A stretch of DNA of 64,000 bases from Minisyncoccota bacterium (lineage in GTDB: Bacteria > Patescibacteriota > Minisyncoccia > Phycocordibacterales > UBA9973). Position 1 is the first letter of the stretch; each line of letters begins with the position of its first letter. Shown piece after piece: positions 7,535 to 64,000 of the stretch. The translations under genes and the position numbers were made by a program. Where the stretch lies: assembly GCA_041659785.1 (NCBI GenBank), contig JBAZXO010000001.1, forward strand, positions 19,795 through 83,794, written 5' to 3'. The notes below the pieces were generated by a model. It was not told the DNA's origin. It did not search any database and saw only the letters and a list, made by a program, of their open reading frames with translations.

Positions 7535-8011
7535 TTATACCCTTGCTTTCTCCAGAGCTTCTTTTTCTTCAGCGCTTAATTCGTATTCGGATTTTCCATT
7601 TTTGATAGGTTTTGCAAATATGCTCATCCTCTCGCGAGAATATAAACTCGAAATCACTAAACCATTACCTTCTTCATTTAGCATTCCGATAGCGAAGCTC
7701 TGGTTGCTGCCTTGATCTGGAAATGGGTTGAAGCGTATCGTTTCAAGTCCTCTGACACTTTTTCTTAATTTAGAATTTATTGAAACAATATTTTTTTCAA
7801 TTTCTTCTTTTGATTTATTTAATTTATTTATTTCAGTTTCTAGGAGAGCGATAGTTTCCTCTAAATCTTTTGCTTTTTTACCAAGGAAAAATTTTTTTAA
7901 GCGTTTTTCGGTAACGATTATCCAAATAGCACATAAAAGATTGCCAAGAAAAGCAATTCCACTTAAAACAAAAAAAGCCAAGAAAAACATATTGTCGAGC
8001 TTTATATTCAT
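7535..8011 (-). CDS. DUF4446-like membrane-anchored coiled-coil protein
   Basis: N-terminal TM, coiled coil, C-terminal RFNPFPDQGSNQSFAIGMLNEEGNGLVISSLYSRERMSIFAKPI motif typical of the family (recalled from memory). Confidence 0.5.
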   Translation of the reverse strand: MNIKLDNMFFLAFFVLSGIAFLGNLLCAIWIIVTEKRLKKFFLGKKAKDLEETIALLETEINKLNKSKEEIEKNIVSINSKLRKSVRGLETIRFNPFPDQGSNQSFAIGMLNEEGNGLVISSLYSRERMSIFAKPIKNGKSEYELSAEEKEALEKARV

Positions 8012-8035
8012 ATCGTTTCAATATATACTATTTTT

Positions 8036-9334
8036 ATGCTCAAATCAAACTTGTCCCGCCGTGGCGGGGTAAAAGGATCAAATAAAATATATCTAGATTA
8101 TGCTGCGAGTGTAGAAGCGAATCCTAGTTCGATACATTCATTTGGCGTAGATGCAAAAATAAAACTTCAAAATGCGCGAAAAGAAGTAGCGAGTGTTTTA
8201 GGCTCTAGACCTGAAGAAATAATTTTTACGAGCGGTGGCACAGAAAGCAACAACCTTGCGATACAAGGAGTTGTTTGGTCAATTATTGAAATGCACACAT
8301 ATTCGCCTGTTGGCGAATTGCTCTGCTCGGCTCGTCAGCCCGCGCAAGGCATTTCAAAAACTACCAAACAACTCCTTCCACACATTATAACCACAAACAT
8401 AGAACATCCCTCAGTACTTGAGACTTTTAAATTATTAGAAAAAAGAAAACTCGCACAAATTTCTATAGTAGAAGTTGAAGCAAATGGGATAGTGGATCCA
8501 AAGAAAATAAAAAAAGAAATAAAGGAAAACACAATACTTGTTTCGGTTATGTATGCAAATAATGAAATAGGCACGATTCAGCCAATTCGTGAGATAGCAA
8601 AAGAGATTAGGCATTTTAAGAAAATAAAGGAAATCAATTTTTTCTCAGGTCCTCGGAAAAAATCCCCAGACCGTTCAAAAAAATTATTCCCTTCATTTTC
8701 TTTCCCGTTATTCCACACTGATGCAGTGCAAGCAGTTAATTATTTAGACCTTAATGTAGAAAGGCTCGGTGTGGATTTGCTTTCATTATCTGGCTCAAAA
8801 ATTGAGGGAGGAGGCAAAGTAGGAGTTCTTTATAAAAGAAAAATAGTTAAACTTGCAAATGTATATGGTGGAGGGGATCAAGAAATGGGATTACGTCCAG
8901 GGACAGAAAATTTATCAGAAATTTTGAAATTTTCTAGCGCATTAAAATTAGCGCAAGATATTAAAGAAAAAGAAAGTAAACGATTAACAAAACTTCGTGA
9001 TTATTTTTTTAGAGCCGTAGCGGGTAAGGCAATAATTAACGGTGATCTAAAAAATAGATTACCAAATAATGTGAATATAACGTTTCCAAAAATTCCAAGC
9101 GACCTTTTGGTTATTGAACTTTCTGCGAAAGGTATCATGGCATCTTCGAAAAGCGCTTGCAAAAGTTCCAGCTCAGAAGGTTCATATGTCATAAAAGCAA
9201 TACACCCAGAGATAGATAGAGAGATAGGCGGACTTCGTTTTTCGATGGGCAGAAAGACTACAAAGAAAGATATCGACTATACAATTAAAGTTTTATCTCA
9301 TATTTTGACAAAACTAAAAAAATGGTATGATTAG
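8036..9334 (+). CDS. cysteine desulfurase / class-V aminotransferase (IscS/NifS-like) with lineage-specific insertions
   Basis: IYLDYAAS N-terminus, ..TTNIEHPSVLE.., the PLP-lysine motif SLSGSKI, GLRPGTEN. A GC-rich mini-palindrome sits at codons 5-12 (8049-8069). Confidence 0.8.
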   Translation: MLKSNLSRRGGVKGSNKIYLDYAASVEANPSSIHSFGVDAKIKLQNARKEVASVLGSRPEEIIFTSGGTESNNLAIQGVVWSIIEMHTYSPVGELLCSARQPAQGISKTTKQLLPHIITTNIEHPSVLETFKLLEKRKLAQISIVEVEANGIVDPKKIKKEIKENTILVSVMYANNEIGTIQPIREIAKEIRHFKKIKEINFFSGPRKKSPDRSKKLFPSFSFPLFHTDAVQAVNYLDLNVERLGVDLLSLSGSKIEGGGKVGVLYKRKIVKLANVYGGGDQEMGLRPGTENLSEILKFSSALKLAQDIKEKESKRLTKLRDYFFRAVAGKAIINGDLKNRLPNNVNITFPKIPSDLLVIELSAKGIMASSKSACKSSSSEGSYVIKAIHPEIDREIGGLRFSMGRKTTKKDIDYTIKVLSHILTKLKKWYD

Positions 9335-33740: not shown

Positions 33741-33749
33741 TAAGATAAA

Positions 33750-33818
33750 CCCCCACACCTATTTCAAGTGCACATCAAATATATACTAAGCTTAATATTT
33801 TAAAAATAGGTGTGGGGG
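33750..33818. repeat. perfect 15-bp inverted repeat (cccccacacctattt / aaataggtgtggggg) with a 39-nt AT-rich loop downstream of grpE
   Basis: Read directly. Candidate terminator or small structured RNA. Confidence 0.6.
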
Positions 33819-33853
33819 TAAAGGTCGTTTGTTGGTTATAATATCTTATTTTT

Positions 33854-51143: not shown

Positions 51144-51186
51144 CTCTATTTTTATTTTTTGTTTTATGTTAAAATATTTCAGTACT

Positions 51187-51252
51187 TGTCCCGTTAGAAA
51201 TTCAACGGACATGTCATAATAAATGGGTTTATTAGTTTAAATTTCTAATGGG
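51187..51252 (+). promoter_or_regulatory. structured leader: cccgttagaaatt (51190-51202) pairs with aatttctaatggg (51240-51252) right up to the aspS ATG; a competing local hairpin is gtcccgtt/aacggac
   Basis: Read directly. The same cccgttagaa / ttctaacggg-ATG arrangement occurs before murG (63558-63672). Confidence 0.55.
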
Positions 51253-52593
51253 ATGAAAAATCGTATTTATATTAAGGACTTGAAGGACAATGTCGGCAAG
51301 GAAATCATCATAGCTGGATGGGTAGACGTCAGGCGTGATCAGGGTAAAATGGTATTTTTTGATATGCGAGACATGACGGGTAGGGTTCAGTGTGTTGTAT
51401 TACCTAGCCATATAGAAGCTATTGAAAAAGCAAAAGAAGTAAGGCTCGAATGGGTTCTCAAAATGACAGGAGTAGTAAACAAACGCCCAGAGAAAAATAT
51501 TAAACAAGGTGTATTAAATGGCGACATTGAACTCGAAGTTTTAAATATAGAAATTCTAGGAGAAGCTGCACCACTTCCTTTTGATATGTCTTTAGATGGA
51601 TACAATCTGGACTTGGTCACAGAGTTAGATAATCGCGCGCTCGTTTTACGTCATCCGAAAGTTCAAGCAGTTTTCAAGGTTCAAGAAACGATTATAGATT
51701 CTTTTAGAGAATTTATGAAACAAAATTTATTTTTTGAATTTCAAGCTCCATCCATTACGCCCGCAGTGGCCGAAGGTGGAAGTGAAGTTTTCCAAATTGA
51801 TTATTTTGATAAAAAGGCATATTTGACTCAATCTCCTCAGCTTTACAAGCAAATCGTGATGACTGCTTTTGAGAGAGTTTTTTCTGTTAATAAAATTTTC
51901 CGCGCTGAACCAAGCGCTACTACGAGACATTTGACGGAAGTTGTCTCTCTAGATGCCGAGATGGCATTTATCGATGGATGGGAAGATGTTCGCGATATGG
52001 CAGAAGGAACTGTGAGGTTTATTTTAGAAAAAGTAAAAGAGAAAAATTCTGAACACTTAAAACTCTTAAAAGCAGAACTTCCAGTGATGATAGAAAAGAC
52101 ACCGACACTTTCTTTAGTGGAGGCACAACAAAAAATATTTGAGAACTTTAATCGTGATGTAAGGGGAGAAAAAGACCTAAATGCACAAGATGAGAGGGAA
52201 ATCTGTGAAATTATAAAAAAAGAAACAGGTTCTGATTTTGTTTTCGTTTACGGTTATCCAACAATGAAAAAGCCTTTTTATGTTTATCCAAATCCAGAAA
52301 ATCCAGAATTCAACGAAGGAGTGGACTTACTCTGTCGTGGACTAGAATGGCTCTCTGGTGGACGCAGAATAAATAAATATGATCAGCTGATGGAACATGT
52401 GAAGTTATGGAAGATGGATCCAAATAAAATTAAAATGTTTTTAGAAGCATTTAAATACGGTGTTCCACCTGAAGGTGGTTTTGCTTTTGGATCTGAGCGT
52501 ATTACTATGCAGCTTTTAGGACTTAAAAACGTTCGCGAAGCTTCAATGTTCCCCAGAGACATGGAGAGAATAGATGAAAGATTTTCAATTTAA
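51253..52593 (+). CDS. aspS: class IIb aspartyl-tRNA synthetase (archaeal/eukaryal-type; possibly non-discriminating)
   Basis: N-terminal OB fold; motif-2 FRAEPSATTRHLTEVVSLDAEMAF; QSPQLYKQ; motif-3 GFAFGSERITMQLLGL..FPRD; 446 aa. Confidence 0.75.
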   Translation: MKNRIYIKDLKDNVGKEIIIAGWVDVRRDQGKMVFFDMRDMTGRVQCVVLPSHIEAIEKAKEVRLEWVLKMTGVVNKRPEKNIKQGVLNGDIELEVLNIEILGEAAPLPFDMSLDGYNLDLVTELDNRALVLRHPKVQAVFKVQETIIDSFREFMKQNLFFEFQAPSITPAVAEGGSEVFQIDYFDKKAYLTQSPQLYKQIVMTAFERVFSVNKIFRAEPSATTRHLTEVVSLDAEMAFIDGWEDVRDMAEGTVRFILEKVKEKNSEHLKLLKAELPVMIEKTPTLSLVEAQQKIFENFNRDVRGEKDLNAQDEREICEIIKKETGSDFVFVYGYPTMKKPFYVYPNPENPEFNEGVDLLCRGLEWLSGGRRINKYDQLMEHVKLWKMDPNKIKMFLEAFKYGVPPEGGFAFGSERITMQLLGLKNVREASMFPRDMERIDERFSI

Positions 52594-62457: not shown

Positions 62458-63555
62458 ATGAAGGAAAAAAAAGTAGATAGATTTTTTCTAATAATTGTAC
62501 TTATATTACTTTTTTTTGGTGTTGCTATGTTTGTCTCAGCATCACTTGGGGTCTTGGCGAAGAATCCAGCCATTTTTTATCAAGTGATTTTTAGCCAGTT
62601 AGTCCTCGGCCTCGGCCTCGGCCTCGTTGGTATGTATTTTTGTTTTAAAATTGATTACAAACTTTTACGTAATTATTCCTTTTTAATTTTTGTGGGTTCG
62701 ATACTTTTGACTGCGGCAGTTTTCATACCATTTTTAGGATGGAGTCATGGGGGAGCGGAGAGATGGATACAAATAGGGAGATTCAATTTTCAGCCGGTAG
62801 AATTTTTAAAATTTGGTTTTGTTATTTATTTTGCAGCATGGCTGTCTTGGACAAGAAATAAAGTGCAAGATTTTAGATTTAAAATTTTGCCATTTATGGT
62901 GATGATTGTGGTCATCGCTGTTGTCTTACTCAAACAGCCAGACACAAAAAGTTTTATTTTAATTACAGTCACTGGTGTATCGATGCTTTTTTTATCGAGT
63001 GTTCCTGTTAAATATATTCTAGGCACACTATTGGGAGTGATAATATTACTCGGAACTCTCGTATTTGTTACTCCTTATTTACAACAACGTGTGAAAACTT
63101 TTATTAATCCGAGCGGGGATGCACAAGGCTCTTCTTATCAAATTCAGCAATCACTCATCGCTCTCGGATCTGGCGGAATGTTTGGTAGAGGTTTCGGCCA
63201 AAGTGTACAGAAATTTAGTTATTTGCCAGAACCACAAGGCGACTCTATTTTCGCTGTTTTAGGTGAAGAATTAGGTTTTATCGGTTCAACATTAACGATA
63301 TTTCTTTATATTCTTTTTATCTTACGCGGGTTTCGTATTGCTAGTCGTTCACCGGATTCTTTTAGTGGACTTTTGGTATATGGAATTGTTATACTTATTA
63401 CAGCACAGTCTTTTATGCACATTGCTTCTGTTACTGGAGTCTTTCCGTTGACCGGAGTTCCGCTTGTTTTTATGAGTCAGGGAGGTACTTCACTTATGGT
63501 GTATCTTATGGCAATAGGTATTGTGCTTAATATATCGAGATTTCAGCGGATATGA
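62458..63555 (+). CDS. ftsW: SEDS-family peptidoglycan glycosyltransferase FtsW/RodA
   Basis: ..GGAERWIQIGRFNFQPVEFLKFG.., 10 TM; gene order mraY-ftsW-murG. Confidence 0.8.
   Translation: MKEKKVDRFFLIIVLILLFFGVAMFVSASLGVLAKNPAIFYQVIFSQLVLGLGLGLVGMYFCFKIDYKLLRNYSFLIFVGSILLTAAVFIPFLGWSHGGAERWIQIGRFNFQPVEFLKFGFVIYFAAWLSWTRNKVQDFRFKILPFMVMIVVIAVVLLKQPDTKSFILITVTGVSMLFLSSVPVKYILGTLLGVIILLGTLVFVTPYLQQRVKTFINPSGDAQGSSYQIQQSLIALGSGGMFGRGFGQSVQKFSYLPEPQGDSIFAVLGEELGFIGSTLTIFLYILFILRGFRIASRSPDSFSGLLVYGIVILITAQSFMHIASVTGVFPLTGVPLVFMSQGGTSLMVYLMAIGIVLNISRFQRI
62604..62626. repeat. hexanucleotide SSR (cctcgg) x about 3.8 inside ftsW (encodes GLGLGLG)
   Basis: gtcctcggcctcggcctcggcctcg read directly. Confidence 0.8.
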
Positions 63556-63557
63556 AT

Positions 63558-63672
63558 CCCGTTAGAAGCCGCGGTCGCAAAATTACATTTTTATATAATA
63601 TAAATATGCAAAAAATAAATTATAAAATAATTTTAAGTAGTAACGGTCTGACCGCGACCTGCTTCTAACGGG
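63558..63672 (+). promoter_or_regulatory. long-range inverted repeat between ftsW and murG: cccgttagaagc-cgcggtcgc ... gaccgcg-acct-gcttctaacggg, with its 3' arm abutting the murG ATG
   Basis: Perfect 12-bp outer and 7-bp inner arms around a 70-nt AT-rich loop. Outer arm identical to the aspS leader (51190/51240). Confidence 0.6.
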
Positions 63673-64000
63673 ATGAAAATAGTCTTTACAGGTGGTGGAA
63701 CAGGGGGGCATTTTTATCCAATCATAGCTGTCGCCCAAAAAGTTAATCAAATAATAGATCATGAGCACATAATAGGAGCGCAACTCTATTATCTTTCTGA
63801 TAGTCCTTATGATAAAGAATTGCTCGTAGAAAATGGGCTTTTGTATGAGGAGATAGGCGCTGGGAAAATGCGCACACATTTTTCTGTAAATAGTTTTTTC
63901 TTAAATTTTTTAGATATCTTTAAAATTTTTTTTGGTACGATAAATGCAATTTACAAATTGTTTTCAATTTATCCAGATGTTGTTTTTGGTAAAGGAGGCT
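63673..64000 (+). CDS. murG: MurG (N-terminal part; the gene continues past the window end; not in the ORF track)
   Basis: MKIVFTGGGTGGHFYPIIAVAQKV.. is the MurG G-loop N-terminus. Confidence 0.8.
   Translation, partial: MKIVFTGGGTGGHFYPIIAVAQKVNQIIDHEHIIGAQLYYLSDSPYDKELLVENGLLYEEIGAGKMRTHFSVNSFFLNFLDIFKIFFGTINAIYKLFSIYPDVVFGKGG

Follow-up and report, generated by a model that had tools for sequence, protein, structure and literature searches.

Hairpin elements on the start codons of aspS and murG in a Minisyncoccota genome belong to a palindromic mobile family whose full-length members encode a GIY-YIG nuclease

Introduction

Correia/NEMIS elements of Neisseria, ERIC and RUP/BOX are about 100–150 bp long, possess terminal inverted repeats (TIRs) that form hairpins in the mRNA, are flanked by a short target duplication, differ between strains and lie near gene starts. 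They depend on or derive from insertion sequences (IS) with a DDE transposase and insert at TA-like intergenic sites. Rickettsia palindromic elements (RPE) are small palindromes in expressed genes of reduced genomes, where they are translated in frame within proteins. Elements of the piggyBac/IS1380 type use a 4-nt target (TTAA for piggyBac), have CCC...GGG ends and leave by precise excision that produces 4-nt overhangs. The roles known for GIY-YIG enzymes are those of homing or repair nucleases, not of transposases. Here, we analysed a stretch of 64,000 nucleotides (nt) from a Minisyncoccota bacterium (contig JBAZXO010000001.1, positions 19,795 to 83,794; hereafter the window), in which two hairpin-forming elements, copies A and B, sit on the start codons of aspS and murG.

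Copies A and B are non-autonomous copies, resembling miniature inverted-repeat transposable elements (MITEs), of a large palindromic mobile family that is abundant across the Patescibacteria or candidate phyla radiation (CPR). The insertion falls between the A and the TG of the host start codon, and the last A of the element rebuilds the ATG. Full-length members contain one gene only, which encodes a stand-alone UPF0213-like GIY-YIG nuclease and is co-oriented with the host gene. Taken together, the probable and best overall explanation is that both sites hold family copies at start codons, that the nuclease mobilises the family and that reinitiation of translation keeps the host gene expressed.

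Results

Two palindromic insertions in the window

The features at site A that define the insertion are as follows.
51189..51253, plus strand: element copy A, non-autonomous, 65 nt, recognised by its inverted repeat and predicted RNA fold.
51253..52593, plus strand: coding sequence (CDS) of aspS, a non-discriminating aspartyl-tRNA synthetase, assigned by Pfam and sequence comparison.
51167..51175, plus strand: TGtTAAAAT, a putative extended −10-like box 5′ of aspS, read by eye.
51184, plus strand: A, presumed first base of the aspS start codon before insertion and presumed leaderless transcription start.
51185..51188, plus strand: CTTG, a constant 4-mer at the left junction, not a target duplication.

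The arms of copy A, TCCCGTTAGAAATT (51189–51202) and AATTTCTAATGGGA (51240–51253), form 14 pairs, one of which is G·T (51193/51249), and the final base of the element is the A of the aspS ATG (51253). Removal of positions 51185–51253 in silico restores cagtATGAAAAATCG, while the same place in a relative without the element (locus L002, AspS 88% identical) reads ttacATGAAAAATCG. There, a TGaTAAAAT box is followed by 8 nt and then by ATGAAAAATCG; the spacing to the ATG is identical to that in the window, and the restored A falls 8 nt past the −10-like box exactly as in L002. A scan for two-hexamer promoters, which needs a −35 hexamer, gave no call at aspS. The element is present at the same place in a closer relative (L001, AspS 98% identical), and the arms of the two copies differ by two compensatory changes, from C-G to T-A at 51192/51250 and from T-A to A-T at 51201/51241. 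The window AspS is 100% identical to the protein of a metagenome-assembled genome (MAG) of a Candidatus Paceibacterota (Parcubacteria). Judging from its G·T pair and its divergence from L001, copy A may be an older, shortened copy.

The left junction of copy A allows two parses. A TTG start codon as the target, with TG as a 2-nt duplication, was considered and dropped, since the ACTTG flank recurs in eight other copies before unrelated genes. We prefer to read the site as A, then CTTG plus the element, then TG, because this fits the empty site of L002 better. The (A)CTTG flank is thus shared with 8 other short copies, all before unrelated genes, and the L001 variant is ACCTG; besides site A, the copies with a constant or near-constant left CTTG are L001, L011, L019, L020, L045, L060, L089, L091 and L093. 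In the predicted RNA fold, the UUG of CTTG-type junctions pairs with the AUG via G·U wobbles.

Site B has a different junction, defined by the following features.
63557..63673, plus strand: element copy B, non-autonomous, 117 nt, recognised by its inverted repeat, predicted fold and family end architecture.
63552..63556, plus strand: ATGAA, the displaced murG start with the left TGAA copy (63553–63556), assigned by the family flank consensus.
63673..64000, plus strand: murG CDS, partial, assigned by Pfam; its ATG consists of the last A of the element and the right TGAA copy (63674–63677).
62458..63555, plus strand: ftsW CDS, assigned by Pfam; its TGA stop (63553–63555) overlaps the displaced ATG.

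The arms of copy B span 63557–63569 and 63661–63673, within a perfect inverted repeat of 14 nt (63556–63569/63661–63674), and the last base of the 3′ arm is the A of the murG ATG (63673). They enclose an inner 7-bp stem formed by CGCGGTC (63570–63576) and GACCGCG (63650–63656), with a 4-nt bulge, ACCT (63657–63660), on the 3′ strand. The target-site duplication is TGAA, at 63553–63556 and 63674–63677. The RNA folds of both sites are far more stable than those of shuffled sequences, with z = −5.7 for site B and z = −3.4 for site A. These data bear out the original prediction, made from the letters alone, that each site forms a hairpin whose 3′ arm reaches the start codon; its description of the element as AT-cored suits copy B and fails for copy A.

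Three relatives with FtsW proteins 98, 91 and 86% identical to that of the window (L124, L125 and L126) have no element at murG, and the murG N-terminus ATGAAAATAG is identical in the window and in these element-free loci. The element is therefore polymorphic at both window sites, being present or absent among close relatives. Loci L001, L125 and L126 come from one metagenome sample (JGI 3300037810). Copy B occupies the ftsW–murG spacer entirely, and the window is without the spacer of 8–40 or 38–50 nt seen in the element-free relatives. This loss results in the ATGA overlap between the ftsW TGA and the displaced ATG, and a deletion at the junction accompanied or followed the insertion. The C-terminus of the window FtsW also differs from that of the relatives (it ends in RFQRI; region 63545–63556, compared with 2055–2106 of L124 and 4092–4144 of L126). 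The assignments of aspS, murG, ftsW and mraY in the window are supported by Pfam.

The two copies are the only ones in 64 kb: no further degenerate copies were found in the window, where matches with two mismatches occur at chance level. A separate perfect inverted repeat of 16 nt, ACCCCCACACCTATTT / AAATAGGTGTGGGGGT (33749–33764 / 33804–33819, 39 nt between the arms), belongs to a different hairpin family, as it is intergenic and not at a start codon.

A family of start-codon insertions

One genome per species was scanned for the exact arms TCCCRTTAGAA-N(80-110)-TTCTAAYGGGA, which yielded at least 120 loci against about 4 expected by chance (our own arithmetic, for 6e11 bases searched with a 42-bit pattern at 31 gap lengths). 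The matches listed come nearly all from CPR, namely Saccharibacteria, which account for many of them, Nomura-, Kaiser-, Jorgensen-, Taylor-, Doudna-, Levyi-, Kerfeld- and Moranbacteria and Kazan. Typical copies also occur in MAGs labelled as Omnitrophota (L007, L014, L046), Planctomycetia (L027) and Gammaproteobacteria (L052), which could reflect true spread to other ultra-small bacteria or binning contamination. Among 2.9 million viral contigs there were zero matches to the arm pattern, and carriage by phages was rejected for this reason.

The short set comprises 136 copies, including both window copies and that of L001. Both this set and the long set described below were chosen by exact arms, so that arm positions 1–11 are invariant by construction of the search, and the counts are lower bounds. 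The ends of the family read (T/C)CCCGTTAGA(A/G) ... (T/C)TCTAACGGG(A/G). The terminal A and the flanking TG form an ATG in 128 of the 136 copies, and 108 of these open an open reading frame (ORF) of at least 100 codons; the remaining eight lie mostly on TAA(A) or TATG. Around these 128 copies, the left flank follows the consensus A-T-G-R-R (A in 106, T in 97 and G in 92), and the right flank T-G-R-R. An exact flanking direct repeat of 4 nt (TGNN, mostly TGAA) is found in 80 copies, one of 3 nt in 10 and one of 5 nt in 5. Since the 4-nt repeat is preceded by A in 78 of the 80, these repeats represent a displaced start codon. This target preference, together with the duplication (A/TGAA, the slash marking the insertion point), explains, in place of a common regulatory signal, the atgaaaa with which both aspS and murG begin.

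Element length places the displaced ATG in the frame of the host gene in 18 copies, and none of these frames (0/18) is open. The rebuilt ATG is therefore where host proteins begin, and the idea that they read through the element as an N-terminal extension was rejected. Tandem elements that share one 4-mer were seen in L013 (7673–7887), L098, L103, L167 and L073 (3874–3900); such tandems are expected if each insertion recreates the ATGAA target.

About 180 host genes are affected, and they are functionally unrelated. Sixteen orthologous groups were struck more than once, often by different subfamilies. Among them, murG was a target three times, by window copy B, by a different short copy in L050 and by a long nuclease copy in L218, each at its ATG; aspS is also a target in a Taylorbacterium (L060).

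Taken as MITEs, the window copies measure 65 and 117 nt (under about 600 bp) and hold mini-ORFs only and no transposase gene. They have 13–14-nt arms at both sites, and the same arms recur in more than 250 further copies; copy number and presence or absence at orthologous sites also agree with this class. Target duplication was seen for copy B and for 80 of the 128 family copies, not for copy A. The candidate partner is the 277–286-nt element with the same ends that encodes only a GIY-YIG nuclease and to which the mobilising role may be assigned. One of the two options in the original prediction, a MITE-like family with cccgttagaa TIRs, is thereby confirmed by its many copies, target duplication, presence and absence among relatives and occurrence in many phyla.

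Full-length copies encode a GIY-YIG nuclease

In Parcubacteria RAAC4_OD1_1 (L073), a 280-nt element with related arms lies 1.3 kb from a short copy and encodes a GIY-YIG protein of 84 amino acids (aa) that ends at the TAA of the arm. A metagenome scan for this long form, with arms 243–273 nt apart, gave at least 120 loci. Of 119 listed elements of 266–295 nt, 93 show GIY-YIG similarity, and the nuclease-bearing ones measure 277–286 nt. Eighteen nucleases are intact (83–87 aa), begin 14–25 nt from the 5′ end and terminate at the arm TAA, which lies 4 nt 5′ of the rebuilt ATG (...UUC UAA CGGG AUG(host)). Long and short copies share arms, flanks (ATGNN, element, TGNN) and orientation. When the long copies are oriented by the nuclease gene, a host ORF starts at the downstream junction in 53 of them, whereas only 1 has such a start at the other end.

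Some nuclease ORFs lack an ATG and are read in frame from the displaced host ATG (L161). The arrangement in L256 is TAAAAT, 8 nt, ATG GA/T CCC GTT, the nuclease in frame, TAA CGGG ATG GAC and then a VirD4-like host gene. Gene callers yield nuclease products of either 84 aa or 92 aa, according to their use of the displaced host ATG (P0241, P0333 and others).

The Pfam GIY-YIG model matched the long-copy proteins with E = 1e-14 to 1e-17, and the residues at the motif positions Y, Y-G, R, H, E and N are invariant. This catalytic domain with its conserved residues occurs in the full-length relatives only, not in the window. The closest solved structures are the UPF0213 proteins BH0048 (E = 4.5e-10) and EF2693 (E = 3e-4). 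At E ≤ 1e-10, at least 1579 protein clusters were found, the best 120 of which are 83–100% identical; they bear only generic public names, 'GIY-YIG nuclease family protein' and 'putative endonuclease', or the erroneous label 'excinuclease ABC subunit C'. Sequence kinship to homing GIY-YIG enzymes is weak (TIGR01453, E = 2.7e-8, below cutoff; I-TevI, E = 0.35). Homing endonucleases have an added DNA-binding domain and a long target, home into alleles free of the intron or intein and lack inverted repeats and duplication, a description that does not apply to this single-domain protein of 83–87 aa, whose element has both of these and lies before many different genes.

The GIY-YIG domain is the only ORF between the arms, and none of the known IS enzyme classes (DDE, HUH, serine, tyrosine) is represented. 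A conventional autonomous IS was also sought among the 120 genome loci, by way of unpaired arms or arms 0.8–3 kb apart; apart from tandem copies and the 280-nt element of L073, the partners that turned up were all degenerate. No arm pairs 0.8–3 kb apart occur in these loci, which total about 1 Mb; in the collections, the search reaches arms up to about 600 nt apart. The shared ends, flanks, orientation and stop codon argue for descent of the short copies from the long ones by deletion. By eye, peptides such as MFYSHYY... and MLYYYYY..., as well as the ...NYKIILSSNG... encoded by copy B, resemble the nuclease N-terminus.

Several side observations concern other long or GIY-YIG-bearing loci. The 282-nt element of L173 has ends of the window B type (GAAGCCGCGACCGC...GATCGCAATCTGCTTC) and a non-GIY-YIG interior with its own long inverted repeat, which may represent either a nested insertion or another cargo. 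L169 holds two identical intact nuclease elements at a distance of 5.7 kb (2131–2411 and 7872–8152); their left flanks are identical over 12 nt (ggtttggcggcg), their right flanks both begin with agcac and there is no ATG junction. This pair probably represents a duplicated host region, possibly an rRNA-related one. Duplicated 5′ parts of tRNA genes flank further small GIY-YIG genes (L004, 4454–4645, minus strand; L121, 5217–5432, minus strand), which may be a second kind of GIY-YIG insertion with tRNA genes as its target.

Anatomy of the short copies and translational context

Two further features of site A and one of site B concern the interior of the elements.
51188..51210, plus strand: alternative local hairpin gtcccgtt/aacggac, seen in the sequence; the recurring GGGA motif of the family is related to it.
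51223..51240, plus strand: 5-codon mini-ORF ATG GGT TTA TTA GTT TAA, read in the sequence.
63552..63668, plus strand: 38-codon mini-ORF MNPVRSRGRKITFLYNINMQKINYKIILSSNGLTATCF, from the displaced ATG to the TAA (63666–63668) within the 3′ arm.

Watson-Crick pairing holds at arm positions 12 and 13 in 121 of the 128 copies, with all four pair types in use, which indicates that pairing is kept and not merely sequence. Together with the two compensatory changes relative to L001, this answers the suggestion that the arms be examined for covariation. Mismatches in the arms on the sense strand are G·T in 18 cases versus A·C in 9. The largest subfamily, which includes copy B, has an inner stem CGCGRNC/GNYCGCG and a 4-nt bulge WCCT. 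Relative to the host gene, this bulge lies on the 3′ arm in every case, hence the orientation of the element is fixed relative to the gene.

An interior GGGA, complementary to the 5′ arm, is present in 44 of the 128 copies on the sense strand versus 6 on the antisense strand; it may descend simply from the Y-T-G codons of the nuclease (ACGGGA). The competing local hairpin that had been proposed before aspS (arms 51188–51195/51204–51210) does exist, with 7 pairs and a required bulged C, and its GGGA motif recurs in the family, but it lies outside the predicted minimum-energy fold.

The 3′ arm reads TTC TAA CGGG A/TG. An internal ORF of at least 15 codons that starts with ATG and ends at the arm TAA was found on the sense strand of 52 of the 128 short copies. 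The corresponding controls gave 5 on the antisense strand and 3 and 8 in the two remaining sense frames, and 500 shuffles of the interior averaged 9.0 ± 2.7 (maximum 18). Of the 128 elements, 65 have a length divisible by 3, so that the displaced ATG is in the TAA frame. The 38-codon mini-ORF of copy B contains an internal in-frame ATG at 63606. The mini-ORF of copy A is in frame with aspS and stops 12 nt 5′ of its ATG, and a homologous one, ATG AGT TTA TTA TTT TAA, lies at the same place in L001.

Only 6 of the 55 long ORFs of the window have a Shine-Dalgarno-like motif (GGAG/GAGG/AGGA/AAGG at −18 to −6), while −10-like hexamers cluster 5–8 nt before the start codons of about 15 of the 55 genes. 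These two observations suggest that many mRNAs of the window are probably leaderless. Insertion into the start codon deprives the ribosome of no upstream signal that it needs, but it buries the new AUG in a stem.

Discussion

Proposed mechanism

By its association with the elements, the GIY-YIG nuclease is the candidate for mobilising both the long and the short forms. Staggered cleavage would occur at A/TGNN and at the element ends, and the duplication would result from a stagger of 4 nt. Recognition of the palindrome may take place in its hairpin or cruciform state, as suggested by the SLX1-like kinship of the enzyme and by the palindromic form itself. Once inserted, the element would be expressed from the promoter and start signals of the host gene. 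Ribosomes translating the nuclease ORF or a remnant mini-ORF would melt the hairpin, terminate at the UAA and reinitiate 4 nt downstream on the rebuilt AUG (the UAACGGGAUG junction), and the host gene would stay translated. For copy B, the predicted chain runs from the ftsW TGA to the overlapping displaced ATG, through the 38-codon mini-ORF to the UAA and on to the murG AUG. At site A, a formerly leaderless aspS mRNA would gain a 69-nt hairpin leader and a 5-codon upstream ORF.

A number of observations speak against parts of this explanation. Copy A has no target-site duplication and carries the constant CTTG instead, and about 20 long copies likewise have constant TTTA or CTTG left flanks (L158, L183, L225 and L242 are among the long copies with constant or inverted 4-mers). 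The murG site is not a clean filled/empty pair, since the window also lacks the spacer of its relatives. No GIY-YIG gene was found within the 64-kb window, comparison of short-copy interiors with the long elements gave no nucleotide similarity at E < 1e-3, no member of a known transposase class accompanies the family, and, to our knowledge, GIY-YIG nucleases do not catalyse transposition. As for reinitiation, an upstream ORF of at least 5 codons that ends near the host ATG is missing from 33 of the 128 short copies, and the mini-ORF, the WCCT bulge and the GGGA of the sense strand could have been inherited from the nuclease gene as remnants and not be selected functions.

With regard to the aberrant flanks, a few copies have inverted 4-mers (CTTG...CAAG, CTCG...CGAG), which lengthen the inverted repeat. 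By analogy with piggyBac/IS1380-type elements, the constant CTTG and TTTA flanks are possibly overhangs brought from the donor site. Inversion between copies as the origin of mismatched flanks (TTTA...TGAA) was rejected, as no reciprocal product was noticed by eye among the copies.

Alternative explanations

The same mobile family might be moved by something else, an unseen transposase or host recombination and repair, with the GIY-YIG gene as a passenger, a homing or addiction module or a frequently invaded small gene. The known roles of GIY-YIG enzymes in homing and repair are in line with this, as are the small GIY-YIG genes outside arms (L004 and L121 between tRNA parts, L067 beside an element), the different 280-nt cargo between window-B-type ends in L173, the numerous short copies and the absence of a nuclease gene from the window. 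However, 93 of the 119 listed long elements share both the gene and its orientation, with the stop codon inside the conserved arm; no other ORF and no more distant arm pair (0.8–3 kb, in about 1 Mb of loci) offers another mover, and the nuclease is strongly conserved, with 83–100% identity in the best 120 of at least 1579 clusters. We therefore regard a different mover as unlikely.

The second option of the original prediction was a conserved cis-regulatory RNA leader or switch that sequesters the start codon of aspS, murG and other genes. The stability of the AUG-containing hairpins, much above that of shuffles, would suit such a switch, and so would the covariation of the arms with the two compensatory changes between window and L001, the excess of G·T over A·C (18 to 9) on the sense strand and the recurrence of the alternative 5′ hairpin motif. 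It is nevertheless contradicted by the lack of the element at the same genes in close relatives with identical coding starts (L002 and L124–L126), by the direct repeats and the displaced start codon, which mark an insertion, and by some 180 unrelated hosts, together with full-length members that code for protein. Rfam scans at gathering and E-value thresholds gave no family match, only sub-threshold matches to generic hairpin models such as miRNA precursors. A regulatory switch is accordingly very improbable.

Chance inverted repeats sharing a 10-mer would be compatible with the window alone, where the 10-mer count at up to one mismatch is 6 versus 3.2 expected (reached by 7 of 100 shuffles, not significant) and two-mismatch matches are at chance level, but the further cccgttagaa/ttctaacggg pairs that were called for exist at 120 or more loci in species-representative genomes, and hundreds of copies share arms, spacing, flanks and orientation with none in viral contigs, which rules this out. 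An integron attC site was also rejected, as the core order is reversed (GTTAGAA ... TTCTAAC versus 5′-RYYYAAC ... GTTRRRY-3′) and the sites precede housekeeping genes; no integron integrase was noted among the window ORFs examined, the annotation of which is not exhaustive.

Implications

Beyond a mobile family whose nuclease is its probable mover, we tentatively propose, with less confidence, an undescribed class of prokaryotic mobile elements: a unit of about 280 bp, with an 84-aa GIY-YIG nuclease as its sole gene, which would integrate between the A and the TG of start codons in CPR bacteria, take over the promoter and often the start codon of the host gene, rely on UAACGGGAUG reinitiation and have spawned the hairpin MITEs. 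If true, the nuclease element of about 280 bp would be among the smallest autonomous mobile elements known. No description of the family or of the nuclease-only combination was found in the literature on CPR MITEs, GIY-YIG genes and start-codon palindromic elements; the nearest report places GIY-YIG genes within insertions, other than introns, in the rRNA genes of CPR (PMC11270868).

If the nuclease indeed mobilises the family, nuclease-only elements with inverted repeats would be an added route of bacterial DNA mobility. The start-codon target rule, combined with regeneration of the codon, would allow a parasite to proliferate in genomes with about 90% coding sequence and scant intergenic DNA. 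The family is also a natural experiment on translation initiation in CPR, as hundreds of essential genes tolerate a hairpin of 65–290 nt on the start codon. In practical terms, gene callers can be led astray by the displaced ATG, population genomics of CPR gains strain-level markers in the copies, and a small nuclease with a defined short target is of possible biotechnological interest.

Comparison with known systems

Like Correia/NEMIS, ERIC and RUP/BOX, which are co-transcribed with genes, the CPR family consists of small hairpin-forming TIR elements at gene starts, usually with a short target duplication, that are present in many copies and polymorphic. In contrast to them, it inserts inside the start codon and rebuilds it, is oriented with the gene and has a full form that encodes a GIY-YIG nuclease. 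With RPE, it shares small palindromes that are tolerated in expressed genes and are compatible with the frame; here, however, no in-frame fusion is open (0/18), and the element supplies its own stop codon, followed by the host ATG. Compared with piggyBac/IS1380-type elements, the CPR family has no DDE transposase, and its target is A/TGRR instead of TTAA. If CCC...GGG is taken as the ends, the flanks of the CPR family are not direct repeats.

As regards the enzyme, the seg genes of phage T4 and I-TevI similarly place a GIY-YIG domain on a selfish insert between or before host genes. Those proteins have about 200–250 aa and a DNA-binding domain, recognise a long site and rely on homology-directed repair, without inverted repeats or duplication, whereas the CPR protein is a bare catalytic domain of 83–87 aa in an element with inverted-repeat ends and a 4-nt duplication. 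In size and single-domain form, it resembles UPF0213/COG2827, to which its closest solved relatives belong (BH0048 of B. halodurans, PDB 1ZG2; EF2693 of E. faecalis, 1YWL); these have no assigned function or known mobile context, and SLX1, a relative of UPF0213, is a structure-specific nuclease that needs a partner. The full-length form thus unites features of IS, namely inverted-repeat ends and target duplication, with an enzyme of the homing type that has no DNA-binding domain.

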